Positions 22,253 to 43,751 are shown, counted from the stretch's first letter. The stretch is 44,176 nucleotides of DNA from Candidatus Iainarchaeum sp. (GCA_043808155.1 JAZDFD010000006.1:1-44176), one strand, 5' to 3'. Program-made: numbers and translations. Notes: generated by a model from the sequence alone, not told the origin.

Positions 22253-22324
22253 GCCCCCGTAGTATAATGGACAGAATGTTAGCTTGCGGAGCTTGAGATC
22301 TGGGTTCGATTCCCAGCGGGGGCG
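22253..22324 (+). tRNA. tRNA-Arg(GCG)
   Basis: Cloverleaf GCCCCCG/CGGGGGC, anticodon loop TT-GCG-GA, T loop GTTCGAT. Confidence 0.95.
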
Positions 22325-22390: not shown

Positions 22391-23368
22391 ATGCTGGGAG
22401 AGTTTGACTTATTAGATTTGCATAATAGTGACGATATTGTACTTCGGAGATGTATTCGCGCATATACTATTATTCCAAAATATGTGAAAAATCCAACTGA
22501 AAAGAATTTCAAGGCGCAGAAAATTGTTAAGATTTTAAGACAAATAAATTCTAAGCTTAGAAAAGAAATTGGGCTGAGTTGGAAAGATCAATGGATTGAT
22601 AAATTACCTTTTGAAATGAAACGAACAAGTCCAAAAGAATGGTTTTTAGGAAGGGCTTCAATACCCTTAATTGCAATAACTAAACTAAATGAATTTGGTT
22701 GTGAAACAGAAGTTGAAGAAATCAAAAAACATCTAGATTATTTGTGTAGCACAACAGGTACTGTTGCAAAAAGTCCTAAAAAAGTTTCAAAAGAACTTGC
22801 TTGGTTTGTTGCAACAATACTTTGTGATGGGCATATGACAAAAAATGAAAGTAGACTTAGTTTTAGCTTAAGCGATAAACAATTAATTAAAAAAATTGGC
22901 GGGGTTTTTAACAAACTTTTTGAACTTGAAGGTCGGACTGTCAAAATCAAAGATAAACCGCAGTGTGTAAAACCACAATATGGATTGGATGGTAACAACA
23001 AAATTATTATTCGTTTTCTAAATAAATTTTGTGAGATTCCCGTGGGTAAAAAATGCGATATTATACTTGTGCCCGAAATAATTAAACAAGCACCACCAGA
23101 AATCAAAAGAGCATTTTTAAAAGGAGTTTTTGATACCGACGGAGGAAAACGGAGTGGTGGTCTAGGTTTAACAAGTGCATCAAAAAAATTCAGGGATCAA
23201 AACCTTGAGCTTCTTAAAGAATTCGGTATTAAATCTTACAAAGACGAATGGATCAATAAGCTATATAATAAAAAGTATTATGGTCTCAAATTTAAAATAG
23301 ACTCAAATTCAGAATTTTTATGCAGGCGTCGGATAGTGGCAATTCCGTCAGGTTTAGGGGAGTATTAA
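22391..23368 (+). CDS. Free-standing two-motif LAGLIDADG homing endonuclease-family protein
   Basis: LAWFVATILCDG and AFLKGVFDTDGG motifs; 3' end reads into tRNA-Leu. Confidence 0.85.
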   Translation: MLGEFDLLDLHNSDDIVLRRCIRAYTIIPKYVKNPTEKNFKAQKIVKILRQINSKLRKEIGLSWKDQWIDKLPFEMKRTSPKEWFLGRASIPLIAITKLNEFGCETEVEEIKKHLDYLCSTTGTVAKSPKKVSKELAWFVATILCDGHMTKNESRLSFSLSDKQLIKKIGGVFNKLFELEGRTVKIKDKPQCVKPQYGLDGNNKIIIRFLNKFCEIPVGKKCDIILVPEIIKQAPPEIKRAFLKGVFDTDGGKRSGGLGLTSASKKFRDQNLELLKEFGIKSYKDEWINKLYNKKYYGLKFKIDSNSEFLCRRRIVAIPSGLGEY

Positions 23369-23440
23369 GTCGTTTTTGATTTTTATTCTGAAACACCTGA
23401 TCCCTTAGTGGGTTCGCAGGTTCGAGTCCTGCCGCCTGCA
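23322..23440 (+). tRNA. tRNA-Leu(TAG) with 36-nt canonical 37/38 intron (23359..23394)
   Basis: GCAGGCG/CGCCTGC acceptor stem, long variable arm. BHB: TTTA/TGAA helix, bulges GG|G and AC|A. Confidence 0.92.
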
Positions 23441-23448
23441 TTATTAAG

Positions 23449-23527
23449 ATGCGAGCGAAGCGAGCTATTACGACTGAAAGTCGTACACGCACTCGCCGGA
23501 CGTGACGGCGGAATCCTGCCTCCTGCA
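23449..23527 (+). repeat. tRNA-linked hairpin element followed by a duplicate of the tRNA-Leu 3' end
   Basis: GCGAGCGAAGCGAGC...GCACTCGCCGGACGTGACGGCG, then GAATCCTGCCTCCTGCA (tRNA has GAGTCCTGCCGCCTGCA). Confidence 0.75.
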
Positions 23528-23601
23528 AAAAAACCAAAAAATTATAAAAATAAAAGTAGCCCATTAATCATCTGACTAAAAGAACATATTTCCAATAACT
23601 T

Positions 23602-24288
23602 TCATTGTATTGGTTTTACGGGTATTTGGCTGTAACCGCCACCCGTGTTCTGAATATTCTGCAGGCAGTTTTGTTTCTGGCTTTCATTTGTTATCTTGTC
23701 ACAATATGAAGAGTCTCCGAGTCTCATTGCCATGTTAAAATAGCAACTGTCCTTCATGCTGATGCTCTTTATTTCGTTGCAGAGTTCCGGATCTAAAAGC
23801 TCGCTTGCTAAATTACTATAGCAGTTTTCTCTGTAGTTAATTTCACTTATTTTGTCGCAAATTAAGGCATCCTTCTTGTCCCTTGCATACTGTTCATAGC
23901 ACCTGTCTGCATCTGTTCCTGCTTCCGAGCATATATCCGCGTCATTCTTCAATTCAGCCACTAGTACATAGCAGTTTGTTCGCTGGTCTCTACTCACTTC
24001 TTTGCAAATGGAAGCATTTTCGTATTTGCCTGCAATCCCCATTATGCAGGAATCCTCAAATGGAAACGCCTGAGTTGAGGGCATTCCGGAACAAACTTCC
24101 AGGTCTTTTTCCTCCTGTGTTAGCTCTTTTGTTGTCGCAGTAGTTGCAGGGCACAATGTTGGATCTGTTACTGTTGTTGTACCATCCGCACACACATACT
24201 TGATTGCAGAATCAGAAGTGGTTTGTGTGCAGCCAGCTAGAAGAAGAGTTAACCCCAATGCCAACATTAAATAGGATATATTCACCAA
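23602..24288 (-). CDS. Secreted lipoprotein-like protein with Cys-rich repeats (C-x-x-I...CY)
   Basis: LLAGC lipobox-like signal; about 5 tandem disulfide repeats. Confidence 0.85.
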   Translation of the reverse strand: MVNISYLMLALGLTLLLAGCTQTTSDSAIKYVCADGTTTVTDPTLCPATTATTKELTQEEKDLEVCSGMPSTQAFPFEDSCIMGIAGKYENASICKEVSRDQRTNCYVLVAELKNDADICSEAGTDADRCYEQYARDKKDALICDKISEINYRENCYSNLASELLDPELCNEIKSISMKDSCYFNMAMRLGDSSYCDKITNESQKQNCLQNIQNTGGGYSQIPVKPIQ

Positions 24289-24474
24289 ATCACTGTTTAG
24301 TAATATCTTTTAAGAGCTTAAAAACATATGGTTTCTAAATTTTTGTGAAATTTGCTTAAGAGCGCCATCACACAAACCTACGTCTCATATTCACCATCCT
24401 GCCTCTTGCATTACGTTTATATTGGAAAGCTACTTATATACTTCAAATAAATTCAATTTAGGGAGGGTTAGAAA

Positions 24475-24630
24475 ATGCCTGTAAAAAAACCGTTTGGTGG
24501 ATATGAAGTTTCATTCAAAGGATGCACTGACACTATGGAAAGTGTATTTGGATCAAAAGGAATTCCACCAAGTGAAATGACAAAAAAGCTCTGGGCTTAT
24601 GTTAAAAGTAAAAAAATAGCAGGGAAGTAA
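24475..24630 (+). CDS. 51-aa SWIB/MDM2-like mini-protein (not in ORF track)
   Basis: MPVKKPFGG...IPPSEMTKKLWAYVKSKKIAGK; GGAGGG SD; KKLWAY(V/I)K is SWIB-like. Confidence 0.7.
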   Translation: MPVKKPFGGYEVSFKGCTDTMESVFGSKGIPPSEMTKKLWAYVKSKKIAGK

Positions 24631-24645
24631 TTCCCTGACTTATTT

Positions 24646-25011
24646 TTATTGCAAATTGCAATTAGATGCAGATGCAAGAGATTGCAGTTGTTGCGTTCCT
24701 CTGTATTCTAAACCATTTATTTTCCAAGTAGGATAACCAGTTACACCTTCACTATTGCAAACTGATTTTTGCTGATCACAGTCAACGTAATTTACAAATT
24801 GGAATGAAGTTCCAAACATGTCTTTTTGATTTTTGCAGTTGTGACACCATTCAGTTCCATACATCACCACCCCATTTGCAGTTAAACATTGTGCGAATTC
24901 ATTCAGATCGCCAGGTGTTGCTGACCAGTTAATGTAACTTATTACAACAAAAGCAACTATTGCAATTCCGGTTATTCCTAAAACTGCATAAAGAGCTTTT
25001 TTCTTATCCAT
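24646..25011 (-). CDS. Membrane-anchored thioredoxin-fold protein
   Basis: MYGTEWCHNC (CxxC), GYPTW cis-Pro motif, N-terminal TM helix. Confidence 0.88.
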   Translation of the reverse strand: MDKKKALYAVLGITGIAIVAFVVISYINWSATPGDLNEFAQCLTANGVVMYGTEWCHNCKNQKDMFGTSFQFVNYVDCDQQKSVCNSEGVTGYPTWKINGLEYRGTQQLQSLASASNCNLQ

Positions 25012-25015
25012 TGTA

Positions 25016-25306
25016 TTACCTCAAACTCCAATTGTTTTGAATTAGTTCTGAAAGTTTAGGCATTATAATTATCAAAGCCCAAATTGCAGTTATTGAAAAT
25101 GTGATTACAAATCCTAAAAGTAAATCATTTGCCAGATTTTCACTAATTAAGAATAATTCATTATTCCAAAAATGATCAACTATTCCAAAAAGAGAACCAC
25201 CTAAAAACATAAGAGACAACCAGTGGAGATTTTGATTTTCCGGTTGCTTTTTTTTCAAACTATGTGCAAATAAAAATACTACTGCGGGAACGATATAACA
25301 GGTCAT
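25016..25306 (-). CDS. Small membrane protein
   Basis: 3 hydrophobic segments, GIVDHFWN motif, GGAGG SD. Confidence 0.8.
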   Translation of the reverse strand: MTCYIVPAVVFLFAHSLKKKQPENQNLHWLSLMFLGGSLFGIVDHFWNNELFLISENLANDLLLGFVITFSITAIWALIIIMPKLSELIQNNWSLR

Positions 25307-25344
25307 ATTAAAGCCTCCTAAATGATGTATTATTTAAATGAAAT

Positions 25345-25977
25345 TTATTTAAGAATCTTTCCGGTTTCCATATACCACAAATATAAGTCAAGTTCTGCCT
25401 GTGTCAGGTTTGATTTTTGTGCGATTTTTGCAAGTGTTTTTTCAATTTCGATATATACTTTTGGAGTTAATGTTTTTGATTTTTGAATTATTTTGTATTT
25501 CACTAACAAATCAATAATATGGAAATCAACTATTGCCAGATTTTCATAACCTATGTTTCTGAGGAAGTGACTTGCTTCTTTAAAACCCAGACCTTTTATG
25601 TTCTTTACAACCCATTCACGAAGTTCGAATTCATTCTGGGAGGAGAACATAATTTTTCTCAGTGAGCTTTTATGTTTTCTTGCTTCTGCTATGTGTTCTG
25701 CTCGTTTGTTGGGAAATCTATGGCCTAATGATTTGAGTTTTTTTACCAGCTGTGGTTTTGTAAGAGTTATGAAACCATCTTTGATTTCAGTCTGAATTTT
25801 TATTGCAGGTTCTGCACTGTAATTTGCAGTTAAAATACAAAAACAGAGCTCTTTGAAAAGCTCATTGTTTGATTTTGTACCCAGTTTTTTGAATTCTTTG
25901 ATTTTTGAATCTACTTGGGATTTTATTTTTGTTCTTTTAAGTTTTTGTAAATCTCTGGTAAGGTTATTGTAAGTCAT
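25345..25977 (-). CDS. ogg: 8-oxoguanine DNA glycosylase/AP lyase (Ogg2 type)
   Basis: ELCFCILTAN, HhH KGLGFKEASHFLRNIG, AIVDFHI. Confidence 0.92.
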   Translation of the reverse strand: MTYNNLTRDLQKLKRTKIKSQVDSKIKEFKKLGTKSNNELFKELCFCILTANYSAEPAIKIQTEIKDGFITLTKPQLVKKLKSLGHRFPNKRAEHIAEARKHKSSLRKIMFSSQNEFELREWVVKNIKGLGFKEASHFLRNIGYENLAIVDFHIIDLLVKYKIIQKSKTLTPKVYIEIEKTLAKIAQKSNLTQAELDLYLWYMETGKILK

Positions 25978-25998
25978 TTGAATCCTTGTATTCGGTAT

Positions 25999-26379
25999 TC
26001 ACAATTTTGCTGTCCACAAACCATGCAAATTGCAATATGCTCTTACAGTTAAGTTATCTGCAATTTTACAGAACATTGTTTCGGGTGGCATTCCAGGTTT
26101 TAGGTGTTTTCGGATTGATTTTCCATCTGCAACTAATTCAACCCATTCAATGTAATGTTCCTGTGTCATGGGGTGTGGTTCAGACCCTATTTTCACTTTT
26201 ATTTTTCCATTAACTTCTTCAATTACAGGAACATGCTTTTCCTTACTTGCGTCTACGCTGTTTTCTTTTTGCAGTTGCATTGGCTGTCCGCAACAAACTA
26301 ATTGGCCTGCACCTGCGTGAAGCATCTCAACAATGTTTCCGCAGACATTACATTTGTAAATTTCATTCAATTTCGTCAT
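25999..26379 (-). CDS. dfx: Desulfoferrodoxin / superoxide reductase
   Basis: YKCNVCGN, VCCGQPM, EKHVP, HPM...HYIEW, YCNLHGLW. Confidence 0.95.
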   Translation of the reverse strand: MTKLNEIYKCNVCGNIVEMLHAGAGQLVCCGQPMQLQKENSVDASKEKHVPVIEEVNGKIKVKIGSEPHPMTQEHYIEWVELVADGKSIRKHLKPGMPPETMFCKIADNLTVRAYCNLHGLWTAKL

Positions 26380-26386
26380 TTTATCA

Positions 26387-26908
26387 CTACTTTAATCTAT
26401 CGCCTGAAAGGTTTAAGTGATCAGTTTCTATCTGAACAATTGCTGCAAATAATGTTTTCACTCTTTTATTTTCTGATTCTTGTGCTGCTTTTTTGTAAAA
26501 ATTAATTGCACGCTCTTCTCTTGTGTGAGATTCTTTCAAGTTGTCAGTATTTGCAATTGCACATTTTAATGATTTTTCAGTTTGTTCTTTTGGTAATTTG
26601 AGAATTTTTCTCCATATTATTGCATGTTCTGTTTCAACTTTTGCTAAAGCTTTGAACAACTGTTTGCCTTCTGCATCGTCTGTTTTTTCTGCAGCACACA
26701 AATAAAAAGCTGTGTTGTCAATTTCTAAACCTAATGCAGTTTCTACATTTTTTTTATCGGTTTCATTTAGTTTTACATCAAAAGTTTCATTGTAATCTTT
26801 TGCTTCCACTATGAATTTTTCATAGGCACCACAAAACGGACATCGGCTTGGTGCATGTTCCCCAATATAAGGATCTCCGCAAATTCTGCATCTAAATAAT
26901 TTAATCAT
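26387..26908 (-). CDS. Rubrerythrin-like protein (N-terminal rubredoxin + ferritin-like domain)
   Basis: CRICG...CPFCG; ExxH diiron motifs (ETEH, ETDH). Confidence 0.88.
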   Translation of the reverse strand: MIKLFRCRICGDPYIGEHAPSRCPFCGAYEKFIVEAKDYNETFDVKLNETDKKNVETALGLEIDNTAFYLCAAEKTDDAEGKQLFKALAKVETEHAIIWRKILKLPKEQTEKSLKCAIANTDNLKESHTREERAINFYKKAAQESENKRVKTLFAAIVQIETDHLNLSGDRLK

Positions 26909-26916
26909 ACAATCAC

Positions 26917-26988
26917 CTATTTTTCCTTTTTAACTGGTTTTTTAACTGGTTTCTTTTCAGCTCCGCAACAACAACAATCTCCGCCCAT
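26917..26988 (-). CDS. 23-aa Cys-rich leader/mini peptide MGGDCCCCGAEKKPVKKPVKKEK (not in ORF track)
   Basis: AAGGAGGG SD; stop overlaps the GGTGA SD of the rubrerythrin gene. Confidence 0.6.
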   Translation of the reverse strand: MGGDCCCCGAEKKPVKKPVKKEK

Positions 26989-27055
26989 AATTAATCCCTC
27001 CTTAGGCAGAATAAAATACAAAATAGATTAAATAGTTATGCTGCTCTTCTGCACA

Positions 27056-27445
27056 TTATCGTCTTCGCATTAAAGGTAATTTTCTTTTTTGTGCATCCTT
27101 TAATGCAATTGCGGCTCTTGTTATTCTGCCTTTTAACCCGCCAGTTGTATGTATTTCTTGCATTTCACGAGCATTGAGATTATGCAATGCTGTTTGAAAA
27201 GCAGGATCGATAACATTCTGAGCTCTCAAAAAATCGATTGCGCTAGTTAAGGCAACATTCTGTTCTGGAAACTCCCATTGTTTTGCGCCTTTTTTAATTT
27301 TTTCAGCCATTTCGGGATCGTTAAGATGTTGAAATAAGTCTGCTTTCAAATCTCGTCCCATTTGCTGGCTTAGTTTCCTTAAATCTACCCCCTGTACTTT
27401 CAATTTTTCAACCAGTGCTTCAAAATCTTTCTTAGCTAATACCAT
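27056..27445 (-). CDS. Small orphan protein with basic C-terminus
   Basis: GTGA SD-like site; ends PLMRRR. Confidence 0.7.
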   Translation of the reverse strand: MVLAKKDFEALVEKLKVQGVDLRKLSQQMGRDLKADLFQHLNDPEMAEKIKKGAKQWEFPEQNVALTSAIDFLRAQNVIDPAFQTALHNLNAREMQEIHTTGGLKGRITRAAIALKDAQKRKLPLMRRR

Positions 27446-27545
27446 ACAATCACTAATTAAATTAAGAATCCAAACTATTTAATCATTGCTCTTTGACAGC
27501 AAAGTAAGAGATAAGTATTTAAATACTACATGGGAAAAGTAAGTT

Positions 27546-27656
27546 ATGAGATTTGAAGATAGTGATTTAGTTCATCTGCTTCGATTCAAATCAGATGATG
27601 AAGAAGAAGATGATAATGAAGAGGAAGAAGAATTCGACGAAGAATTCTGCTCTTAA
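27546..27656 (+). CDS. 36-aa acidic peptide (putative)
   Basis: MRFEDSDLVHLLRFKSDDEEEDDNEEEEEFDEEFCS, downstream of TATA-like TTTAAATA. Confidence 0.45.
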   Translation: MRFEDSDLVHLLRFKSDDEEEDDNEEEEEFDEEFCS

Positions 27657-27733
27657 AGTCCTCGGTTCAATTAGCGGAAGCTTCAAATACCTTTCTTATT
27701 CTAATTTTTTCAAGTCTAAAAGTTTTAATGACT

Positions 27734-27856
27734 GGCTGCAGTGGTCTAATGGTATGATTCAGGACTGTGGAAACCTTTTCTTTTCGAAGAAAAGCTTTAC
27801 CAAAAGAAAACAGTTGCAGGTATCCTGTGAAGCGGGTCCGATTCCCGCCTGTGGCC
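27734..27856 (+). tRNA. tRNA-His(GTG) with encoded G-1 and 51-nt 37/38 intron (27771..27821)
   Basis: GCTGCAG/CTGTGGC acceptor stem, C73. BHB: CTGT/GCAG helix, bulges GG|A and GT|A. Confidence 0.92.
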
Positions 27857-27882
27857 CTGCCCGATTCCGATTGGGCGTACCG

Positions 27883-27925
27883 GAATATGTGCAGGATTTC
27901 GTTACACTCAATCCTGCGATAATAT
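27883..27925. repeat. Hairpin repeat (GCAGGATT...AATCCTGC); inverted copy of a segment of the tRNA-Tyr intron
   Basis: 37/43 nt identical to the reverse complement of 43652..43694. Confidence 0.8.
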
Positions 27926-28011
27926 CTGATTCTGAAAGTGAGTTAGTTCATCTCTGATTTGTTTTTTAGGGAAAACATAAATAGTAAAACTGCATTAATA
28001 ATGGTGAAACC

Positions 28012-29295
28012 ATGGAACTAATAAATGCAAAAGGAACAAAGGATCTGATGCCGGAAGAGAAAATTGTAGTGGAAACTCTGAAAAGTAAATTAGTTGAGAT
28101 TTTTGAGAGATATGGTTTCAATCCTTTGGAAACTCCGCTTATTGAGAAATTGGATGTTCTTTCTTCCAAATACGCAGGCGGGGATGAAATTCTTAAGGAA
28201 ATTTTTGTACTTACAGATCAGGGAAACAGAAAACTTGGTTTGAGATATGATTTGACTGTTCCATTGTCACGCGTTGTCGGCATGAATCCTAATTTGAAGA
28301 TGCCTTTTAAGAGATATCAGTTAGGGAAAGTTTTCAGAGACGGGCCGATTAAAGCAGGAAGATATCGTGAGTTTATTCAGTGTGATGTTGATACTGTTGG
28401 AAGTTCTTCAATGCTTGCGGATGCAGAATTTGTTGCAATTGTACGTGATTTTTTCAGGGAGCTCAATGTTGAAGTTGTGACAAAAGTGAATACTAGAAAA
28501 TTACTGAATGGGATTATTGAGGAAGTTAAAGTTCCGGATTCTAAAAAAATGAAAGTAATACTTGCAATTGATAAGCTTGAGAAGCAGGGAATTAATGTTG
28601 TGAGAAAAGAACTTGAAGATTTGGGAATTTCTGATGACAGAGTTTGCAAAATTGAAGAAATGATTTCAATTAAAGGAAATAATTCAGAAAAACTTGAGAT
28701 GATTAAGAAATTTGTGAAAAATAAAGAGGGACTTGAGGGAATTAAAGAACTTGAAGAGATTGCTAATTATCTGAAATTAATGAAAGTTGATAATTATGAA
28801 TTTGATTTTTCACTTGCGCGTGGTTTAGCGTATTATACAGGAACTGTGTTTGAAGTGTTCGCAAAAAAAAGCAAAGTTTCGGGTGCTCTTGCCGCAGGTG
28901 GAAGATATGACAGAATGATTGCTGAATTTTTAGGCAGAAAAGAAGATGTGCCTGCTGTCGGAATTAGTTTTGGTGTAAGTGCAATAATGGATGCTGTAGA
29001 ATTTGCAGAGAATAAGAAATGTGTTACTCAGATTTATGTGATTCCTATTGGAACTTTGAATGAAAGTGTGAAAATTGTAAATGAATTACGCGGAAAAGGT
29101 CTGAAAGTAGATGTTGATTTGATGTCACGCGGTGTGAGTAAAAATTTGAATTATGCTAATTCTTACAAGATTCCTTTTGTTGCAATTATCGGGGAAAAGG
29201 AACTTAAGCAGAAGAGAATCAATTTGAGAGATATGAAAACAGGGAAGGAACAATTAGTTTCTGTGAAAGACGTTGCTGATTTTCTGAAAAAATAA
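28012..29295 (+). CDS. hisS: Histidine--tRNA ligase
   Basis: KGTKD, LRYDLTVP, GRYREFIQCD, ARGLAYYTG, GGRYD, anticodon-binding domain. Confidence 0.98.
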   Translation: MELINAKGTKDLMPEEKIVVETLKSKLVEIFERYGFNPLETPLIEKLDVLSSKYAGGDEILKEIFVLTDQGNRKLGLRYDLTVPLSRVVGMNPNLKMPFKRYQLGKVFRDGPIKAGRYREFIQCDVDTVGSSSMLADAEFVAIVRDFFRELNVEVVTKVNTRKLLNGIIEEVKVPDSKKMKVILAIDKLEKQGINVVRKELEDLGISDDRVCKIEEMISIKGNNSEKLEMIKKFVKNKEGLEGIKELEEIANYLKLMKVDNYEFDFSLARGLAYYTGTVFEVFAKKSKVSGALAAGGRYDRMIAEFLGRKEDVPAVGISFGVSAIMDAVEFAENKKCVTQIYVIPIGTLNESVKIVNELRGKGLKVDVDLMSRGVSKNLNYANSYKIPFVAIIGEKELKQKRINLRDMKTGKEQLVSVKDVADFLKK

Positions 29296-30315
29296 TTATC
29301 TTATATCCGAGTTTTGTTTTGTTACCTTAGTTGCATAAGGGTCTAGCTGATTAATACGTGCATTTGGCCCTCCGCGATAATATCCTGAAAGCAGATTATT
29401 GAAGTTTGTGCTTGAACCTTTGCGTCTTATTTCAAGTTCGTGGCTTATTATTTCATCATGCGCAATTGAAAGCATCATGTTTAATTTCAAATCGTTTTTC
29501 AGGAGAGTTCTTAAGTTTGCAGTTGAGATTGAGTCGGAAATTTTTGCAATGATTTCATCTCTGAAAGGAAAATTTTTATCTGCAAGTGCTTGTCGTCTAA
29601 TCATCTTTGTAGATGACGGCATTATTTGTGTTATGCCTAATGCACCAGTCTTTGAAACTGCCTGCCAGTTTCCGTTGCTTTCTGTCAGAATTCTTTTTAC
29701 AAACATTTCAAAATATTCAGCTAATTTTTCCGGGGTGAATCCCCGTATCTGTGAGTATTGTCTGCATAATTCAAATGCAGTTGGCAGAACAATTAACATT
29801 GTTTGTGCTCTTGCTGCGTAATTTTCAGAACCATGTCCGTTTTTGTAAGCACTGATTCTTTGCTCTAAATTTGTTTTTAACTGTGAAAAATATTTAGTCT
29901 GTGTTGCGTAATTATTGAAATTATTAATAAGTCGTTCTGAAACTATGCACTGGGGAGTCGGAAGATGATTTATATCATTGGGAAGTTCAACATATTTAAC
30001 AGGCCTTGCAACAAGGAATTTTTCAGGAACATTCATGTCAACATCTTTCATTCTGTTAATAAAGTCCTGAGTTGCTTGTTGTGAAATTTCAGATTTCTGC
30101 ACAGGAAGTGATCTTACTCTTTCAATTCCTTTTGAAATTCCAAATCCTGCTGCAGCTGCTCCAAGCATGGCAACTGCTTTTCCTCGCCCAGTCAATGTCA
30201 ATCTTTTTTTTTGGGAGATGGGTTTTCTTGTGGGTGAAAGAATCTCACTGGCAGGTGGTAATTTTCTCCCAGTACGAAGTTTCGGTTTTGGGTAGTGGGA
30301 ATGTGGATTTGGCAT
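29296..30315 (-). CDS. Transglycosylase SLT-domain protein with membrane anchor
   Basis: TESNG...AVSKTGALGITQIMP...YYRGG SLT motifs. Start probably MPNPH (ORF track starts at 30330). Confidence 0.75.
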   Translation of the reverse strand: MPNPHSHYPKPKLRTGRKLPPASEILSPTRKPISQKKRLTLTGRGKAVAMLGAAAAGFGISKGIERVRSLPVQKSEISQQATQDFINRMKDVDMNVPEKFLVARPVKYVELPNDINHLPTPQCIVSERLINNFNNYATQTKYFSQLKTNLEQRISAYKNGHGSENYAARAQTMLIVLPTAFELCRQYSQIRGFTPEKLAEYFEMFVKRILTESNGNWQAVSKTGALGITQIMPSSTKMIRRQALADKNFPFRDEIIAKISDSISTANLRTLLKNDLKLNMMLSIAHDEIISHELEIRRKGSSTNFNNLLSGYYRGGPNARINQLDPYATKVTKQNSDIR

Positions 30316-30360
30316 AACATAATTATACACTGCATATTTAATAATTTCCCGCTCTCGAAG

Positions 30361-30379
30361 TTCAGAGGAAATGAACTCT
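30361..30379 (+). promoter_or_regulatory. Conserved motif upstream of LAGLIDADG remnant (copy 2)
   Basis: TTCAGAGGAAATGAACTCT, 56 nt before ATG. Confidence 0.6.
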
Positions 30380-30416
30380 AAGAGCGTTTATAAATGCTGA
30401 AAAACAATTTTTTATT

Positions 30417-30734
30417 ATGCTGAGGGTTGGTGATAAAAAAGGTGCAAGGATAAATCCCCTTGCAACTATTCCGTCAAAAATGTCTGCTGATTTAGCTGAA
30501 GAAAGTGAAAAATTAATACTGCAAATAGACAAAATACTAAAACAAAATAACTTCACCACTTCGGCGGTACTGAATTCCAAAAACAAAGCAAGTAATGGAG
30601 TTGAATGCATAAACAGCAGAGTATATCTTTATGGAGTCAATAATCTCAAAAGATGGTCAAATTTAATTGGTTTTTCAAATCCAAAAAACATATGCAAATT
30701 CAACATTTGGCAAGAAAAAGGATATTTAAAATAG
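30417..30734 (+). pseudogene. Internally deleted LAGLIDADG paralog of 33445..34173
   Basis: MSADLAEE joins directly to SEKLILQI...ASNG...IGFSNPKN...EKGYLK. The paralog has ~130 extra aa here, carrying both catalytic motifs. Confidence 0.8.
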
Positions 30735-30806
30735 CCCCATCCGGGATTCGAACACGGGACCTCGACATTACCAATGTCGCGCTCTAACCAGCTGAGCTAA
30801 TGGGGC
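30733..30806 (-). tRNA. tRNA-Thr(GGT)
   Basis: GCCCCAT/ATGGGGC, anticodon arm CGACA-TTGGTAA-TGTCG, U73; one T-stem mismatch. Confidence 0.93.
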
Positions 30807-30859
30807 AATAATACCTAACAATAGGTAAAAACATTTAAATTGATTCACTCAATTAAACA

Positions 30860-30882
30860 GGTTCAATTCCCGCCAGAGGCTT
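30860..30882 (+). repeat. Orphan tRNA 3'-end fragment (att-like), partly repeated at 31771..31784
   Basis: GGTTCAATTCCCGCCAGAGGCTT vs CCTGCCAGAGGCTT. Confidence 0.55.
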
Positions 30883-30932
30883 GAGATTCTTTCCGAAACT
30901 ATAAAATATGAGTTTGGACTTAGTTATGATTT

Positions 30933-31316
30933 ATGAAAATGTATTTAATTTTTGGATTAATTTTAGCAGTTTTAATTTTTAGTGGTTGTGCAAATAATAA
31001 TGGTGTAGGCCCATCCCCTTCATTCACAATATCAATAAGTAATGCTTCGGAATATTCGGATTATGAGTTTTATTATGTAGGTAATATTTGGGAAGATCAA
31101 TTAACGTTGATAGCTGATGATACGGAGGTTTACAAATTAAATACTCATGTTACAGTTTATGCTGTTCCTAAAGAACTGAACATTAATAAAAATACTTTTG
31201 CGGAAATTAGTTCAAAAAGTGTTAAATCCCAACAAATATCATTAGACTCAGGAAATAATGATTTTGAAGTTAGTTCTTTTGATACTGCAAATGGAACTAT
31301 GTTGTTAAGTAAATGA
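30933..31316 (+). CDS. Secreted lipoprotein-like hypothetical protein
   Basis: IFSGC lipobox-like signal. Confidence 0.8.
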   Translation: MKMYLIFGLILAVLIFSGCANNNGVGPSPSFTISISNASEYSDYEFYYVGNIWEDQLTLIADDTEVYKLNTHVTVYAVPKELNINKNTFAEISSKSVKSQQISLDSGNNDFEVSSFDTANGTMLLSK

Positions 31317-31353
31317 AGAATAAATAAATATGAGTTTGGACTTGGTTTGTAGT

Positions 31354-31656
31354 ATGAACAAAATAATAAAATTAATAATTATTATTGGAATTATCATTGT
31401 ACTGTTTATATCCATATTTGTAATTAGCACAGTTATTTTTGCGATTAGTTCCGTTGCAGATACTGACGAAATTGCAATTATGTTAACTGAAGCTAAATGT
31501 AATTGGAGACTTTCTGATATTCCAGCTGAAACATGCTCTGCAATTTTTACAGGCGTCTATTTCAATGGTGAAAAATGTGTAAGTGATATCACAGGTGCAT
31601 GCAAAAATTATGCTCCTTTTGGAACTTTAGAAGAATGTCAACAAAAATGTGAATAA
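31354..31656 (+). CDS. Membrane-anchored protein with Kunitz/BPTI-like domain
   Basis: N-terminal TM helix; six Cys with the pattern C...CSAIF..YF....C....GAC....F.TLEECQQKC. Start MNKII preferred over 31330. Confidence 0.7.
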   Translation: MNKIIKLIIIIGIIIVLFISIFVISTVIFAISSVADTDEIAIMLTEAKCNWRLSDIPAETCSAIFTGVYFNGEKCVSDITGACKNYAPFGTLEECQQKCE

Positions 31657-31844
31657 TTCACAAACTACGAATATTTCAAACAAACGAACATCACAAACTT
31701 TAAAAGAAGTTTCAGGGCAAATTATAATAGTACGAAAAACAGCTCAATACATTGAACAAGACTGATTCAGCCTGCCAGAGGCTTTCTTTTTCTGTTTACG
31801 AAGAAAGCATTAAAAAATCCAGAATTGTAATAATAGTGGTTTAT

Positions 31845-32522
31845 ATGAAACTGAATGATGAACTTGTGGATGCTATTGTCGATAAATACATCAAAGACGG
31901 AGATGTGATTTCTTTTGGAACTTCGAAGGCGAGTGAACAGCTGATTAAGAGAATTGCAATAAAAATCGAAGAAAAAAATGAAAAAGTGTATGTGGTTCCT
32001 TCATCTTTGAGAATGGCTTCAATTGCTTCTGATTTGGGGCTTGAAATTGTCACGCTTGATGAAAAAGAAGTTGATGTTGCAATTGAATTTGCAGAGTATG
32101 CAGACGAGCAGTTTAATTTTGTTAAGATGGATGCGAGTTCGTTAATTAAAGATAAAATGATTGGGCAGAGTGCTGCAGAACTGATTGTTATTTGTGACCA
32201 TGATAAATTTGAAAAGCGTTTGAAAGTGATTCCTTTTGAAGTTGCTTCATTCGGATGGAAAAGAACCGAGATTCAGCTGGGTGCATTAGGAAACGCAAAA
32301 TTAAGGAAACATGACGGAAAAGTTTTCAAAACTGAAACGGGAAATTATTTCATTGATGTGGAATTGGATGATGTTTATTCATTAGAAGATATTGATTATG
32401 CGACAAAAGAAATCCCCGGCGTAATTGAAACAGGACTTTTTATTGGTTATGCTGACAGATTCTTATTACACAACGGAAAAGAGATTACTGTTAAAAGCAG
32501 GCTTGATTATTCAAAACAATAG
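31845..32522 (+). CDS. Ribose-5-phosphate isomerase A-like protein, catalytic motifs degenerate
   Basis: RpiA fold motifs (VPSS, PFEV, T.TGNY, IPGVIETGLF), but SFGTSKA and EFAEY replace GLGTGST and DGADE. Confidence 0.8.
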   Translation: MKLNDELVDAIVDKYIKDGDVISFGTSKASEQLIKRIAIKIEEKNEKVYVVPSSLRMASIASDLGLEIVTLDEKEVDVAIEFAEYADEQFNFVKMDASSLIKDKMIGQSAAELIVICDHDKFEKRLKVIPFEVASFGWKRTEIQLGALGNAKLRKHDGKVFKTETGNYFIDVELDDVYSLEDIDYATKEIPGVIETGLFIGYADRFLLHNGKEITVKSRLDYSKQ

Positions 32523-32535
32523 GGGTTTGGAGAGT

Positions 32536-33177
32536 ATGCAGGACTTACAGAAAGAGAATTGCGCAAAGAAGGCAATGGAATTAGTTAAGGACGGAATGGT
32601 TATTGGGTTAGGGAGCGGAAGTACGTTAGTTTATTTCACACGCTTTCTTGGACACTCAAACTTAAATGTAAAAGTGGTTGTTAGTTCCAAGCAAATTCTA
32701 AAAGTTGCAGAAGAAGTTGGTTTAGAAATTGTTGATTTTGAAAGTGTAGATAAAATTGATTTAGCAGTTGATGGTGCAGATCAGGTTGACAAGGAATTTA
32801 ATTTGTTGAAAGGTCTTGGTGCATTTGCAGTTGTGGGGGAAAAGAAATTAGATTATTTTGCAGAAAAATGCGTTATTGTTGTTGATGAAAGTAAAATTTC
32901 TAATGTTCTTGATAGGAATGTTATTTTAGAAATTAATCCTCACAAACTTGAGAGTGTTAAAAAAGCGCTCATGAATTTTGATTGTAAAATTGTGAAAGAA
33001 ACCATGCATGAGGGAAATTCAGTTGTTTTTTTGGATTTTGGAGTTATTAAAAATTCAGCTGAATTAGAGCAAAGAATTGATGCAATTGATGGTGTTAATG
33101 GCAATGGAATCTTTGCTAATTTTAAGCAGCCAATTGATGTGATTGTAGGCAAAAATCAGGGTGCGGAATTCCTCTGA
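32536..33177 (+). CDS. rpiA: Ribose-5-phosphate isomerase A
   Basis: GLGSGST, DLAVDGADQVD, KGLGA...EK. Confidence 0.85.
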   Translation: MQDLQKENCAKKAMELVKDGMVIGLGSGSTLVYFTRFLGHSNLNVKVVVSSKQILKVAEEVGLEIVDFESVDKIDLAVDGADQVDKEFNLLKGLGAFAVVGEKKLDYFAEKCVIVVDESKISNVLDRNVILEINPHKLESVKKALMNFDCKIVKETMHEGNSVVFLDFGVIKNSAELEQRIDAIDGVNGNGIFANFKQPIDVIVGKNQGAEFL

Positions 33178-33326
33178 CAAAGTGCAAAGTTTCTCTGAAA
33201 TTCTTTTTTAATAGTTTGCCAGGCAAATTAGTAATGTCTGTCGCGGTAGCTCAGCCAGATTATTTTTAAGTTACCTTTTTTAAGACTTTCCAGAAACAAG
33301 TTTTAGTGCTTTAATACTGAGCATTT

Positions 33327-33440
33327 GCCAGAGTAGCTCAGCCGGTTAGAGCACTAGACTGGTTTTTTGGTCTATTAATCAAAAAATACAGGGTGAAACT
33401 CATAATCTAGGTGTCAGGGGTTCAAATCCCCTCTCTGGCA
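33327..33440 (+). tRNA. tRNA-Met(CAT), probably elongator, with 40-nt non-canonical 30/31 intron (33358..33397)
   Basis: GCCAGAG/CTCTGGC. BHB: GAG-CACT-AG|A-CTG / CAG-GGTG-AA|A-CTC; splicing gives CTAGA-CTCATAA-TCTAG. Confidence 0.9.
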
Positions 33441-33444
33441 TTAT

Positions 33445-34173
33445 CTATTTAACATAGCCTTTCTCGAGCCATGCTTCTAGTTTCTTCAAATTTTTAGGAT
33501 TAGAGAAACCAATCGAATCAACCCATCTTCCAAGGTTTTTCTTCCCAGAAATATAAACTCTGTTTATAAAACACATTGTCCCATTGCTAGCCACACCAGG
33601 CTTATCATATTGAACACATGTTGTAAATCCCATATTCAATAAAATTTCATTTACTTGTTCTATTAATCTTCTACTCTTACTTGCTATATCGATCCTTGGA
33701 TAATATTTTATTTTTTTGTATTTTTTCTGAAACTGCAAACAACCATCAGTATCAATCAATCCCCGTAAAAAATCACTAACAAAATCCGACTTTAATACAC
33801 AATCAGGAATTTGTATTTTATTTTTCGACCCAATAGGAAACCCTAACGCTTTTTTGAACTGAAGTAATACTTTCGAACTGTAAACAAGTTGAAGACAGTC
33901 CTTTTTCTCATAAATTTTCGTATCTAAGTTATAGACTTTTTTCATCAATTTTTTTAGATGTTTGACATAATCTAACTCGTCTTTTCCAGATGAAATAGTA
34001 TAGTTTATAATATTTCTATGAGGCAATCTATACAAATACAGTCCTCCGTCTCCAACATGAATTCCAAACTCCTCTGCTAATTCAGCACTCATTTCTCTTG
34101 GAAATTTAATTCCTTTTTTCCTATCAACTGAAGAAAAACTAATTCTTGAAATATCAACCAACTCTTTATCCAT
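33445..34173 (-). CDS. Free-standing two-motif LAGLIDADG homing endonuclease-family protein
   Basis: LAEEFGIHVGDG and FLRGLIDTDG; stop codon 4 nt from the tRNA-Met 3' end. Confidence 0.9.
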   Translation of the reverse strand: MDKELVDISRISFSSVDRKKGIKFPREMSAELAEEFGIHVGDGGLYLYRLPHRNIINYTISSGKDELDYVKHLKKLMKKVYNLDTKIYEKKDCLQLVYSSKVLLQFKKALGFPIGSKNKIQIPDCVLKSDFVSDFLRGLIDTDGCLQFQKKYKKIKYYPRIDIASKSRRLIEQVNEILLNMGFTTCVQYDKPGVASNGTMCFINRVYISGKKNLGRWVDSIGFSNPKNLKKLEAWLEKGYVK

Positions 34174-34210
34174 ATAATAATTTGAGTTTTGTGCTTTAAA
34201 AACGCTTTCA

Positions 34211-34230
34211 AAGAGTGGATTTCCGGTGAA
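34211..34230 (-). promoter_or_regulatory. Conserved motif upstream of LAGLIDADG gene (copy 3)
   Basis: TTCACCGGAAATCCACTCTT on the - strand, 57 nt before ATG. Confidence 0.65.
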
Positions 34231-34266
34231 CTTACATTTTTTAATAATTTAGCTTTTGATTATTAA

Positions 34267-34303
34267 TGCCGATGACGATCCGGCTGAGCGATGAGTGTTT
34301 GAT
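34267..34303 (+). ncRNA. Possible box C/D-like small RNA
   Basis: GATGA-8nt-CTGA-GC-GATGA arrangement ~25 nt downstream of an AT-rich TATA-like stretch; guides are short and the D box is imperfect. Confidence 0.3.
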
Positions 34304-34363
34304 TTATCAAATATAGTGATTATAAGTAATGAGTTCTGAGGCAAATTATTTCAAAGTGATGTT

Positions 34364-35200
34364 ATGGGTCAGCAATTGAAAACTGTGTTTTTTCTCGGGT
34401 TAATGACTGGGATTTTCTTACTTACAGGATACGTAATTGGCGGAGAATTTGGAATAATAATTGCTTTTGTTTTAGCGCTTTTTATGAATTTAATTAGTTA
34501 TTGGTTTTCAGATAAAATTGTTCTGAAAATGTATCGTGCAAAGGAAATTTCAAGAAATGAAAATCCTGAACTTCATTCAATGATTGAAATGCTCGCACAG
34601 CAATTTGAAGTTCCTAAACCTAAAGTTTATTTGGTTGAAAACCCATCACCAAACGCATTTGCAACTGGTAGAAATCCGGCAAATGCTGCAATTGCAGTTA
34701 CAACCGGACTTTTGAAATTATTAAATACAGAAGAATTACGCGGAGTTCTTGCCCATGAATTTGCACACATTAAAAACAGAGATATTTTGATTAGCACAGT
34801 TGCAGCAGTAATTGCAGGTGCAATTGGAATGCTTGCTTTTTTTGCAAGGATTGCAATGTGGGGCGGAAGTTCACGTGACAGAGGAAATATTGTTAGTTTG
34901 ATTTTAGTTGCAATTATGATTCCGATAATTGCAGTGATTGTGAGATTGGCAATTTCACGTTCTAGAGAATATTTAGCAGATGAAACAGCAGCAAAAACAA
35001 TTCATTCTCACATTGGTTTAGCAAATGCATTGCAGAAATTACAGTATGGGACTAAAAAAATTCCAATGCACAATGCAAATGAAGGCACTGCTCATATGTT
35101 CATTGCAAACCCTTTCGGAAAAACTGGATTTATGGAATTATTTTCAACTCATCCACCCATGGAAAAACGAATTGAAAGACTGAGAAATGTTTCAATGTAA
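34364..35200 (+). CDS. htpX: Zinc metalloprotease HtpX
   Basis: PNAFATGRNP, HEFAH, ISRSREYLAD, FSTHPP. Confidence 0.97.
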   Translation: MGQQLKTVFFLGLMTGIFLLTGYVIGGEFGIIIAFVLALFMNLISYWFSDKIVLKMYRAKEISRNENPELHSMIEMLAQQFEVPKPKVYLVENPSPNAFATGRNPANAAIAVTTGLLKLLNTEELRGVLAHEFAHIKNRDILISTVAAVIAGAIGMLAFFARIAMWGGSSRDRGNIVSLILVAIMIPIIAVIVRLAISRSREYLADETAAKTIHSHIGLANALQKLQYGTKKIPMHNANEGTAHMFIANPFGKTGFMELFSTHPPMEKRIERLRNVSM

Positions 35201-35230
35201 GTAATAAAAAGCTTCTTCTGCACTTTTCAT

Positions 35231-35293
35231 ATGCGAGCGAGGACAAACCCATAGCGCAAAGCGTATGGGTTCAACTCAAGGTTGTGGCCTTGT
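35231..35293 (+). repeat. Structured tRNA-Glu 5' leader
   Basis: Begins ATGCGA like the Arg leader; CCCATA/TATGGG and CAAGG/CCTTG hairpins; ACTCAAG shared with the Arg leader. Confidence 0.6.
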
Positions 35294-35366
35294 GCCCCTG
35301 TAGTGTAATGGTTAAGCATTCTGGCTTCTCAAGCCAGCGATTTGGGTTCGAATCCCGGCGGGGGCA
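35294..35366 (+). tRNA. tRNA-Glu(CTC)
   Basis: GCCCCTG/CGGGGGC, anticodon arm CTGGC-TTCTCAA-GCCAG. Confidence 0.95.
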
Positions 35367-35377
35367 TGATTAATACA

Positions 35378-35546
35378 TTGCTATTGAGCGAACAAAGTGA
35401 GCATGTGGCACTTCAGTGCCACTCGTACTAGCCGGACGTGTCGGCTTTCGAATCCCGGCAGGGGCATAAAATACAGTGCTACCGAAGGTGCACAGATCAT
35501 AGCCGAGTCTTTTCGTTTTAGTGCTATTGAGCGAAGCGAAAAGTAC
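35378..35546 (+). repeat. tRNA-linked hairpin modules including a duplicated tRNA-Glu 3' end (35447..35466)
   Basis: TGCTATTGAGCGAA x2, GCCGGACGTGTCGGC, TTCGAATCCCGGCAGGGGCA, AGTGCTACCGAAGGTGCAC. Confidence 0.8.
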
Positions 35547-43557: not shown

Positions 43558-43751
43558 CCCCCCTTTGCATAGTAGTTAATGCGCTCGGCTGTAGACTCTA
43601 AATCAACAGCTTCAATGCTGTTCCGGCGTAATGCGTTATATGAAAATGGTAATATTACCGCAGGATTGAACAAAATGAAATCCTGCACATATTCGCACTC
43701 GCCGGGCGCGCGGCGACCGAGAGATCCCCGGTGCAAATCCGGGAGGGGGGA
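43558..43751 (+). tRNA. tRNA-Tyr(GTA) with 121-nt 37/38 intron (43595..43715)
   Basis: C1:G72 acceptor stem CCCCCCT/AGGGGGG; CTCGG-CTGTAG|...|A-CCGAG; relaxed BHB. Confidence 0.88.

Follow-up and report, generated by a model that had tools for sequence, protein, structure and literature searches.

Genetic elements that carry an integrase leave behind partial duplications of tRNA genes as att sites, and phage 21 and e14 do likewise in icd. Also to be considered are mobile endonuclease open reading frames (ORFs) that bring with them a replacement end of their target gene, and the mitochondrial GC clusters or double-hairpin elements. The present analysis deals with a stretch of 44,176 nucleotides (the window; GCA_043808155.1 JAZDFD010000006.1:1-44176), contig C6 of a genome of Candidatus Iainarchaeum sp. 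(G000: 1.08 Mb, 35 contigs, 35% G+C), a DPANN archaeon of the order Iainarchaeales from groundwater. The genome is 88% complete, a value that bears on every negative result for an enzyme family given below for G000. In two tRNA genes of the window, tRNA-Leu(UAG) and tRNA-Glu(CUC), the 3' end is found a second time downstream, directly after an insert of 70-79 nt that closes with GCCGGACGTG(A/T)CGGC, one filler base and the copy of the tRNA end (17 and 21 nt, respectively; table 1). The doubled ends had been noticed in an earlier, sequence-only reading of the window, and both this observation and its coordinates are confirmed, with 15/17 and 20/21 matching positions between the copies.

Both loci are interpreted as insertions of a small non-coding modular repeat, in which a gene end joined to the insert replaced the end of the resident gene and displaced the latter downstream, a reading to which we give about an even chance. 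As the insertion point lies within the 3' end of the gene, everything between the joint and the end of the gene is present twice. The similarity with att duplications is extensive: also there the repeat begins in the T loop or the anticodon loop and covers the rest of the tRNA, the gene retains the working copy and the orphan copy lies beyond the insert, the two copies differ as alleles do (synonymously in protein genes), and inserts accrete in tandem. However, the present inserts are only 45-165 bp long and have no integrase, a single family occupies a large number of unrelated targets, repeats are lacking at most copies, and the joint always falls at a conserved GC hairpin. As with the replacement-end endonuclease ORFs, a doubled gene end keeps the invaded gene intact, but the inserts contain no endonuclease gene, though LAGLIDADG genes lie beside tRNAs of the window; and, like the mitochondrial GC clusters, they are GC-rich hairpin inserts near tRNA genes of an AT-rich, compact genome. 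The integrase gene of an integrase element, the fixed duplication plus transposase of a miniature inverted-repeat transposable element (MITE), the RAYT of a REPIN and the TnpB linkage of an omega-RNA were not found here. No description of these inserts was found in literature searches on tRNAs, introns, hairpins and mobile repeats of DPANN archaea or Iainarchaeota, supplements not being covered; what is new here are the empty sites, the orientation asymmetry and the allele-like differences of inserts that double gene ends.

Copies of the repeat in G000 number 28 by pattern search and 29 by covariance model. Alignment of the 28 copies defines a conserved 3' module formed by a hairpin (B), a C box of consensus C-CG(C/T)AC(T/C)(A/C)G and a terminal GC hairpin, GCCG-N6-7-CGGC, whose 4 bp are invariant among the aligned copies. 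Hairpin B covaries, with double-sided changes in 7/7 pairs, and the observed level of pairing was reached by 0/500 shuffles. The parts upstream are variable: some copies have an A box, GCGA(A/G)C-N3-8-G(C/T)GAGC, which includes the octamer TGCGAACG; in others its place is taken by an 'E' unit, ATATGTGCA-hairpin-GCGGTAATAT, which can face either way; and the longest copies (~165 nt) begin with a 5' 'D' hairpin, for example CCGGTTTCGACCGG, that adjoins the 3' end of a tRNA and, in the manner of an imperfect terminal inverted repeat, is a mirror of the GC hairpin at the 3' end. The short copies (A-B-C, B-C) are devoid of such an inverted 5' end, and the minimal one, formed by B and C, spans 45 nt (C14:11497); none of the inserts, 45 to 165 nt in length, contains an ORF. 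By covariance model the module is present in 22/151 sampled genomes of the order, distributed over 17/66 genera, with the highest counts in the relatives G014 (16 copies), G034 (15) and G094 (11). An exact 22-nt pattern was found in 29 stretches of archaeal metagenome-assembled genomes (MAGs), mostly named Candidatus Iainarchaeum, while two pattern scans of IMG/VR viral contigs yielded one match each, on contigs of 73% and 56% GC, both without hairpin B and both taken as chance. The repeat is specific to Iainarchaeales (DPANN) genomes.

The association of the module with doubled ends exceeds chance. For 8/28 modules of G000 the next 16 nt are repeated, with up to 2 mismatches, 30-300 nt upstream, as compared with 100/20,000 random positions (Fisher p 1.6e-12), one of these eight repeats being a neighbouring module rather than a target. 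A scan within 500 nt of each of the 45 tRNAs of the genome, looking for a second copy of its 16-nt ends, gave 15 rows, nine of which are due to neighbouring paralogous tRNAs. The remaining six are all copies of 3' ends, in sense orientation and downstream of the gene (Gln, Arg-CCT, Leu-TAG, Glu-CTC, Leu-CAA and Gly-TCC), and all but that of tRNA-Gln directly follow the module, so that the survey of all tRNA loci suggested by the sequence-only reading bears out the pattern seen at two of them. When the 18 nt found after each module were used to search the whole of G000 for distant second copies, only the tRNA-Gly islands of contig C14 were retrieved.

The repeats are 14-25 nt long in G000 and up to 51 nt elsewhere. 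Those at tRNAs (17-21 nt) begin in the T loop of the gene, end at its discriminator and are found at six tRNAs, five in G000 and one in G025, where 21 nt of tRNA-Gly(CCC) are repeated (L113). Ends of protein genes are repeated over 20 nt (L115) and 45 nt (L152) in G094 and over 51 nt in G014 (L150). In all of the 12 repeats that can be assigned (six tRNAs, three repeats at two small RNA (sRNA) loci and three protein genes) the insert is co-oriented with the doubled gene, and no repeat accompanies the copies that lie in reverse orientation beside tRNA 3' ends, namely three in G000 plus L148, L188 and L192. The differences between copies are not evenly distributed either: in the six tRNA cases they affect 9/42 acceptor-strand sites versus 2/66 T-arm sites (Fisher p 0.003), and in two protein-gene cases 6/6 differences are synonymous third positions. 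The orphan copy after tRNA-Gly(UCC) resembles the acceptor strand of the tRNA-Gly(UCC) of G034, and the orphan found after tRNA-Leu(UAG), GAATCCTGCCTCCTGCA, is 17/17 identical to the end of tRNA-Ser(UGA) on contig C28 of G000 and also to the 3' end of a tRNA-Leu in a relative. A decaying orphan would mutate evenly, so that at least some of the pairs derive from two functional alleles; judging from the sequences, copy pairs would often differ in this way. Fully identical repeats also exist (Arg, 20/20; C28, 25/25; G094, 20/20).

Direct evidence for insertion comes from relatives. At the L115 locus of G094 an 80-nt insert is flanked by a 20-nt repeat in which the downstream gene has its Shine-Dalgarno sequence and ATG and the upstream gene its overlapping stop; G121 and G067 have these 20 nt once and uninterrupted, G041 has an unrelated spacer, and the downstream region of G056 is not alignable. 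At the L152 locus the 45-nt repeat is present as one copy in G121 and G056, with the next gene starting 4-6 nt past the stop, whereas G067 is occupied, with a repeat that starts at the same nucleotide. In G041 two tandem copies are found without any insert (L194/L199), being either what is left after loss of the insert or a duplication that preceded insertion, and in G086 there is a 9-nt remnant. Single-copy empty sites in congeners of G094 show that these are real insertions, gained and lost, and that the doubling belongs to the insertion. Empty sites, one of the checks suggested in the sequence-only reading, are seen in congeners for these two protein-gene loci. Of its proposal of non-autonomous integrative elements of about 100 bp, the part concerning insertions stands (~70-80 bp, with doubled ends and empty sites in congeners), the involvement of an integrase being at most putative.

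Further loci document repeated insertion and an extension to other classes of genes. On contig C12 (~69830-70100, -) an RNA gene with the motifs GTGATGA ... CTGA and a terminal stem, which we take to be C/D-box-like, is followed by the order repeat, A-B-C insert, repeat, D-E-C insert, repeat. The homologous RNA gene in an Iainarchaeum MAG from Lac Pavin (L158 2200-2370) has an insert after its 3' end with a 20-nt repeat; the two genomes share the nucleotide at which the repeat begins, the copies being identical within each genome and different between them. At tRNA-Asp (C28 16965-17070, L029) a different small insert, GTGCTGCCGAAGGTGCAC + GGAT-X-ATCCTT-X', is present in two tandem copies, and after each of them the tRNA 3' end is repeated over 11-13 nt; tRNA-Gln has this tandem pattern with a third kind of insert. 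Given the inserts at tRNA-Asp and tRNA-Gln, end-doubling is not bound to one insert family; other families, in G004 and G024, are associated with 15-16 nt repeats of tRNA ends. An insert of the tRNA-Asp type is also seen in the window after the orphan tRNA-Glu copy (~35475-35520). On contig C14 (24668-26150; L021 369-1850) two small islands lie behind tRNA-Gly(CCC): one of 0.7 kb, closed by a 36-nt tRNA fragment, and a DUF7557 + PemK/MazF-like gene pair, closed by a 43-nt one, both fragments being 3' pieces of tRNA-Gly that start at the anticodon loop. This locus shows that end-doubling with cargo happens without a resident integrase. The anticodon-stem strand of the 43-nt fragment does not match the tRNA now found there, which would suit a replacement of the entire tRNA.

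A replacement-end scheme that would account for these features can be outlined as follows. A segment made up of a gene end and the insert, originating from a second copy of the chromosome or from a different cell, would enter by recombination, with the conserved gene as its anchor. The opposite end of the segment coincides exactly with the base of the GC hairpin, give or take the 0-2 filler bases that follow, and would then be joined a few to tens of bases upstream of the resident gene end; this could be the work of a trans-acting site-specific recombinase, or of end joining after structure-specific breakage at the hairpin. The resident end would thereby be displaced downstream as the orphan, which would be a relic by-product rather than a guide, the working copy staying on the gene upstream of the insert. 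Selection would retain those events that leave one intact copy of the gene and, where needed, the start signals of the gene downstream; loss would occur by recombination between the two copies, and copies without repeats may originate from two-sided homologous exchange or from joints outside genes. With this scheme the fixed orientation, the constant joint, the variable repeat length, the allele-like differences, the tandem accretion and the repeat-free copies are all accounted for, and the optional, one-orientation repeats of 14-51 nt fit replacement-end or att-like insertion better than a symmetric duplication by a transposase.

Several points weigh against the replacement-end scheme. A partner enzyme was not found in G000. 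The identical repeats at Arg, C28 and G094 would suit a plain target duplication equally well, and the restriction of differences to synonymous positions could partly result from constraint on the orphan as promoter or ribosome-binding region of the downstream gene. The joint always lies at the base of the hairpin, yet inspection by eye revealed no consistent microhomology or conserved motif at the joints. The empty sites come from protein-gene loci of relatives; for the two loci of the window, all 40 nearest genomes belong to other families and the best metagenome contig (86% identity in histidyl-tRNA synthetase, HisRS) is 1.9 kb long and not syntenic upstream. Finally, the tRNA-Glu locus does not conform to the simplest version of the scheme. 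It had been proposed that integration displaced the original end downstream, and for tRNA-Glu the downstream copy does pair better with the 5' strand GCCCCTG, T6 facing G67 in the gene and A67 downstream. However, the two closest tRNA-Glu(CTC) genes of relatives carry CGGGGGC, the state of the in-gene copy, and the tRNA-Glu genes of the relatives run directly into T-rich sequence. The better pairing is therefore no evidence that the downstream copy is the original one: the doubling stands, but the equation of orphan with old native end is not general.

The att-like features can alternatively be explained by classical site-specific integration, whereby the loci would be miniature attL-insert-attR structures mobilized in trans by a tyrosine recombinase, with an attP carrying the 3' part of the target gene and with the GC hairpin and the direct repeats of the A box as putative binding sites. 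The extent of the tRNA repeats, from T loop to discriminator, and the start of the C14 island fragments at the anticodon loop agree with it, and Williams reportedly described in 2002 the T loop and the anticodon loop as sublocations of integrase att sites in tRNA genes; the tandem arrays, allele-like differences and fixed orientation are also suited to it. As to the enzyme, G000 encodes two tyrosine recombinases, XerA and a second one cut by a contig end (C24 3-671, -). The family of the second is found in 5/151 genomes, four of which contain the module (hypergeometric 0.0016, these genomes being kin and thus not independent). Its full-length relatives (frames of 406-457 aa; L226, L229) adjoin tRNA-Ser(CGA) in G056 and tRNA-Arg(TCT) in G008, with a T-loop-like inverted repeat, GTTCAAATCC / GGATTTGAAC, around the start of the recombinase gene. 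However, neither a second tRNA-Ser end nor the module was found within 18 kb of the G056 integrase, and the family is missing from the three module-rich genomes G014, G034 and G094, so that the tRNA-adjacent tyrosine recombinase is a weak lead and not the co-distributed enzyme that the sequence-only reading had asked for. Furthermore, the targets in one genome are at least 10 and include a promoter stretch and protein-gene ends, which would require many att specificities, and 18/28 copies have no repeat. Taking all this into account, integration of this type is considered unlikely.

The same 18 copies argue against a MITE mobilized in trans by a transposase making long and variable staggered cuts, with the repeats as target-site duplications, a possibility we regard as improbable. 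It is supported by empty sites that hold exactly one copy of the repeat, by the identity of some repeats, by defined ends (a 5' CYTGTTGG... common to two G094 copies and the constant 3' hairpin) and by the D hairpin mirroring the 3' hairpin in the long copies. A precedent for the length of the repeats is also available: IS1549 and IS1634 are bordered by variable repeats of 8-514 bp, with no known mechanism of formation (PMC2266710). As in those elements, the repeats found here are far longer and more variable than usual target duplications; but IS1634 and IS1549 are autonomous DDE elements of 1.5-2 kb, whereas for the present inserts, with their optional repeats, no such transposase was found. 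Instead of a duplication of fixed length arising in either orientation, there are repeats of variable length at 10/28 copies, in one orientation only, with allele-like differences between the copies. The insert family also recalls repetitive extragenic palindromic sequences and bacterial interspersed mosaic elements (REP/BIME, including REPIN) and MITEs in general, in being short, non-coding, hairpin-forming, multi-copy, modular, lineage-specific and intergenic; it differs from them in its long flanking repeats, which are optional and confined to one orientation, and in ends that abut precisely on RNA-gene boundaries and exon junctions; clear terminal inverted repeats are lacking, and a RAYT/Y1 transposase was not found. 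Searches of G000 for Y1 transposase (PF01797, 0 matches), reverse transcriptase (RT), DDE_Tnp_1, rve, Cas1 and Piwi found none of them, and an all-against-all comparison of its ORFs revealed no multi-copy transposase-like family (at least 100 aa); no autonomous transposase partner nor RAYT was thus found in this genome. Among the module genomes, 1/22 has an RT, which is thus not co-distributed with the module. LAGLIDADG matches are 14 in G000, including the two free-standing genes beside tRNAs of the window, and LAGLIDADG proteins occur in 131/151 genomes irrespective of the module, so that their presence is uninformative; they lie near only one or two of the five repeat-bearing tRNAs.

The 3' end of the module is positioned with precision. 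In G000 it is followed by position +1 of a tRNA in 4/28 copies (Arg-CCT, Leu-CAA, Ala-TGC, Pro-CGG) and by one more hairpin and then a tRNA in 2/28 (Trp, Pro-TGG). An orphan tRNA 3' end follows in 5/28 (Arg-CCT, Leu-TAG, Glu-CTC, Leu-CAA, Gly-TCC) and an orphan copy of upstream non-tRNA sequence in a further 5/28 (C7, C12 twice, C14, C28), starting 0-2 nt past the terminal GC hairpin. The module is antisense to a tRNA 3' end in 3/28 (Pro-TGG, Val-GAC, a tRNA-Gly fragment), lies 2 nt before the 3' exon of tRNA-Tyr in 1/28 (in the window, table 1) and is found elsewhere in 8/28. Among the copies inspected in relatives (sets of 42 and 31, partly overlapping), the same positions recur: before tRNA position +1 (L117, L128, L135, L143, L182), at intron 3' ends (L107, which is tRNA-Tyr of G009, as in the window, L108, L132), antisense against the end of a 5' exon (L109, L137, L139) and antisense against tRNA 3' ends (the three reverse-oriented relatives' copies mentioned above). 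The hairpins might accordingly be thought of as selected RNA-processing or promoter cassettes, the GC hairpin aiding maturation at RNase P, tRNase Z and splicing endonuclease sites and the repeats being incidental. This is in line with the location of the GC hairpin within 0-3 nt of mature ends or exon junctions in at least 13/28 copies, plus several in other genomes, and with the covariation of the stems. Nevertheless it is held to be very unlikely, given that the distribution is patchy (22/151 genomes), most tRNAs of G000 have no module, the module is present or absent at one locus among congeners, and copies occur in both orientations and beside protein genes too; RNase P RNA is present in G000, so that no substitute is needed. 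A look by eye, with no dedicated bulge-helix-bulge search, indicates that the conserved C box, which precedes the GC hairpin, is unable to pair with the exon downstream, which is variable.

The arrangement of some tRNA genes might also suggest that the orphan copies are remnants of decayed tandem tRNA genes. Isoacceptor pairs are known with exactly one reverse-oriented insert between them, Lys-UUU/Lys-CUU in G067 (L116) and G094 (L177) and Pro-UGG/Pro-GGG in G000 (C1 14941-15175), the GC hairpin being 2-3 nt from the 3' end of the upstream tRNA. As the sequence-only reading had pointed out, such an origin predicts recognizable 5' halves; ARAGORN, and Rfam with E up to 1, found no tRNA 5' half between the copies, in 23441-23510 or in 35368-35446. 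In six tRNAs, moreover, the junction of the hairpin with the T loop falls at almost the same position, and the same layout is found at sRNA and protein-gene ends, with empty sites in relatives. The decayed-tandem explanation is thus disfavoured and in our opinion hardly credible.

The constant hairpin placed directly 5' of a variable segment, usually of 17-21 nt, that matches a nearby target led to the suggestion, already contained in the sequence-only reading, of a scaffold-plus-guide RNA, in which transcription from the A box would produce a protein-binding scaffold, formed by hairpin B and the GC hairpin, with the orphan as 3' guide leading an effector to unoccupied gene ends of the same kind. 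The resemblance is with the TnpB/IscB omega-RNAs and the Cas12 CRISPR RNAs (crRNAs), where a constant structured part also lies 5' of a target-matching segment of about 20 nt. The same sRNA bears an insert in two distant genomes with identical copies within each, and the octamer TGCGAACG of the A box corresponds to the putative start site of halobacterial rRNA promoters, as given in PMC12558985. Against such a role, the slot after the hairpin is often occupied by a whole tRNA, an exon or another module, the repeats reach 45-51 nt, and orphan tRNA copies carry 0-3 mismatches. Unlike an omega-RNA, the module does not terminate a tnpB gene: it is missing from the 3' regions of the two TnpB genes of G000, which do not resemble it either, and TnpB is not co-distributed with it, occurring in 6/22 module genomes versus 22/129 others and being missing from the module-rich ones. 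Neither Argonaute (Piwi) nor Cas1 was found in G000, as stated above. Folding of the two inserts with their orphan copies gave z values of -0.9 to -1.2 on either strand, no better than shuffles, so that a fold signal beyond the local hairpins is absent; Rfam, at gathering score and with E up to 1, returned tRNAs only, the module matching no family. The guide reading has thus found no support and is taken to be a distant prospect. No more probable, and itself decidedly far-fetched on the present data, is a self-renewing guide cassette, in which insertion would double the target and the hairpin-plus-orphan, as RNA or single-stranded DNA, would guide a nuclease or recombinase to unoccupied gene ends; if true, the cassette would be an RNA-guided mini-transposon unrelated to TnpB, IscB and IS110.

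The features of the two loci and of their surroundings are collected in table 1. Coordinates were read from the sequence by hand. Many tRNA genes of G000 contain introns when ARAGORN is run with introns; for tRNA-Leu(UAG), whose cloverleaf was parsed by eye, this mode gives 23321-23441 with an intron of 27 nt, while default ARAGORN mis-calls a tRNA-Lys. The leader of tRNA-Glu(CUC) is itself made of related modules, the last of which, the F hairpin, stops 1 nt short of tRNA position +1 and is also found 5' of tRNA-Trp, Pro-TGG, Arg-GCG, Asp, Val-TAC and Cys. Four DNA sequencing runs, searched as contigs, contain at most 0.13 of the sampled words, a share at which no circles are visible. A contig joint from 35365 to 35475, across the tRNA-Glu insert, has a shorter side of 22 letters only, possibly from another tRNA.

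Table 1. Features of the tRNA-Leu(UAG) and tRNA-Glu(CUC) loci and of neighbouring regions, in window coordinates.
Feature	Position	Strand	Basis or remark
LAGLIDADG_3 gene, free-standing, 325 aa	22391-23368	+	fills the gap between tRNA-Arg(GCG) and tRNA-Leu(UAG)
tRNA-Leu(UAG), intron-bearing	23322-23440	+	ARAGORN with introns, sequence
In-gene repeat copy, last 17 nt of tRNA-Leu(UAG), GAGTCCTGCCGCCTGCA	23424-23440	+	
Insert after tRNA-Leu(UAG), 70 nt	23441-23510	+	sequence, 28-copy alignment, covariance-model match 23461-23509
Leu insert, AT-rich start TTATTAAGA	begins at 23441	+	
Leu insert, A box TGCGAGCGAAGCGAGC	23450-23465	+	
Leu insert, hairpin B	23469-23485	+	
Leu insert, C box CACGCACTC	23486-23494	+	
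Leu insert, 4-bp GC hairpin GCCGGACGTGACGGC	23495-23509	+	
Leu insert, filler G	23510	+	
Orphan class-II tRNA 3' end GAATCCTGCCTCCTGCA	23511-23527	+	15/17 to tRNA-Leu(UAG) end (2 mismatches)
tRNA-Met, intron-bearing	33326-33441		
LAGLIDADG_3 gene, second, 242 aa	33445-34173	-	ends 4 nt from tRNA-Met 3' end
M48 peptidase gene	34364-35200		between LAGLIDADG gene and tRNA-Glu leader
tRNA-Glu leader from related modules: A-like box, hairpin, CTCAAGG...CCTTG (F) hairpin	35230-35293	+	sequence
tRNA-Glu(CUC)	35294-35366	+	Rfam tRNA 60.6 bits, ARAGORN, sequence
In-gene repeat copy of tRNA-Glu, T loop to discriminator, plus T	35347-35367	+	
Insert after tRNA-Glu, 79 nt	35368-35446	+	sequence, alignment; model match 35398-35445, 57.5 bits
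Glu insert, GATTAATAC...	within 35368-35446	+	
Glu insert, A box GCGAACAAAGTGAGC	35388-35402	+	
Glu insert, hairpin B GTGGCAC-TTCA-GTGCCAC	35405-35422	+	
Glu insert, C box TCGTACTA	35423-35430	+	
Glu insert, GC hairpin GCCGGACGTGTCGGC	35431-35445	+	
Glu insert, filler T	35446	+	
Orphan tRNA-Glu 3' end	35447-35467	+	20/21 identical; G67 -> A
Module at extreme 3' end of tRNA-Tyr intron, 2 nt 5' of 3' exon	43668-43714	+	

Some observations concern the genes next to these tRNAs. The 3' end of the 325-aa LAGLIDADG_3 gene overlaps the 5' end of tRNA-Leu(UAG), and in a contig of sequencing run X3 position 22323 is followed, after 29 other letters, by 23316 (depth 2, side 42), which points to a relative without this gene. 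A stretch resembling the 5' end of tRNA-Met, GCGGTAGCTCAGCCAG, is found at ~33239-33258, about 70 nt upstream of the 242-aa LAGLIDADG_3 gene. Similarly, a contig of run X1 connects 34344 with 35224 through 6 intervening letters and points to a relative without the M48 peptidase gene.

These DPANN genomes of about 1 Mb have almost no recognizable transposases and yet dozens of copies of a small structured insert, which lands precisely at RNA-gene boundaries, in tRNA introns and at protein-gene ends and in many cases doubles the 3' end of the gene. The mechanism could reveal a new one-ended or hairpin-led route of insertion, or a trans-acting recombinase with unusually flexible targets, and it would explain the source of the sequences found as leaders, trailers and long introns of archaeal tRNAs. 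In annotation, orphan ends and hairpins of this kind are not to be taken for split tRNAs, processing stems or guide RNAs. As dated fossils of earlier or foreign alleles, the orphan copies would provide a handle on gene exchange among uncultured archaea.

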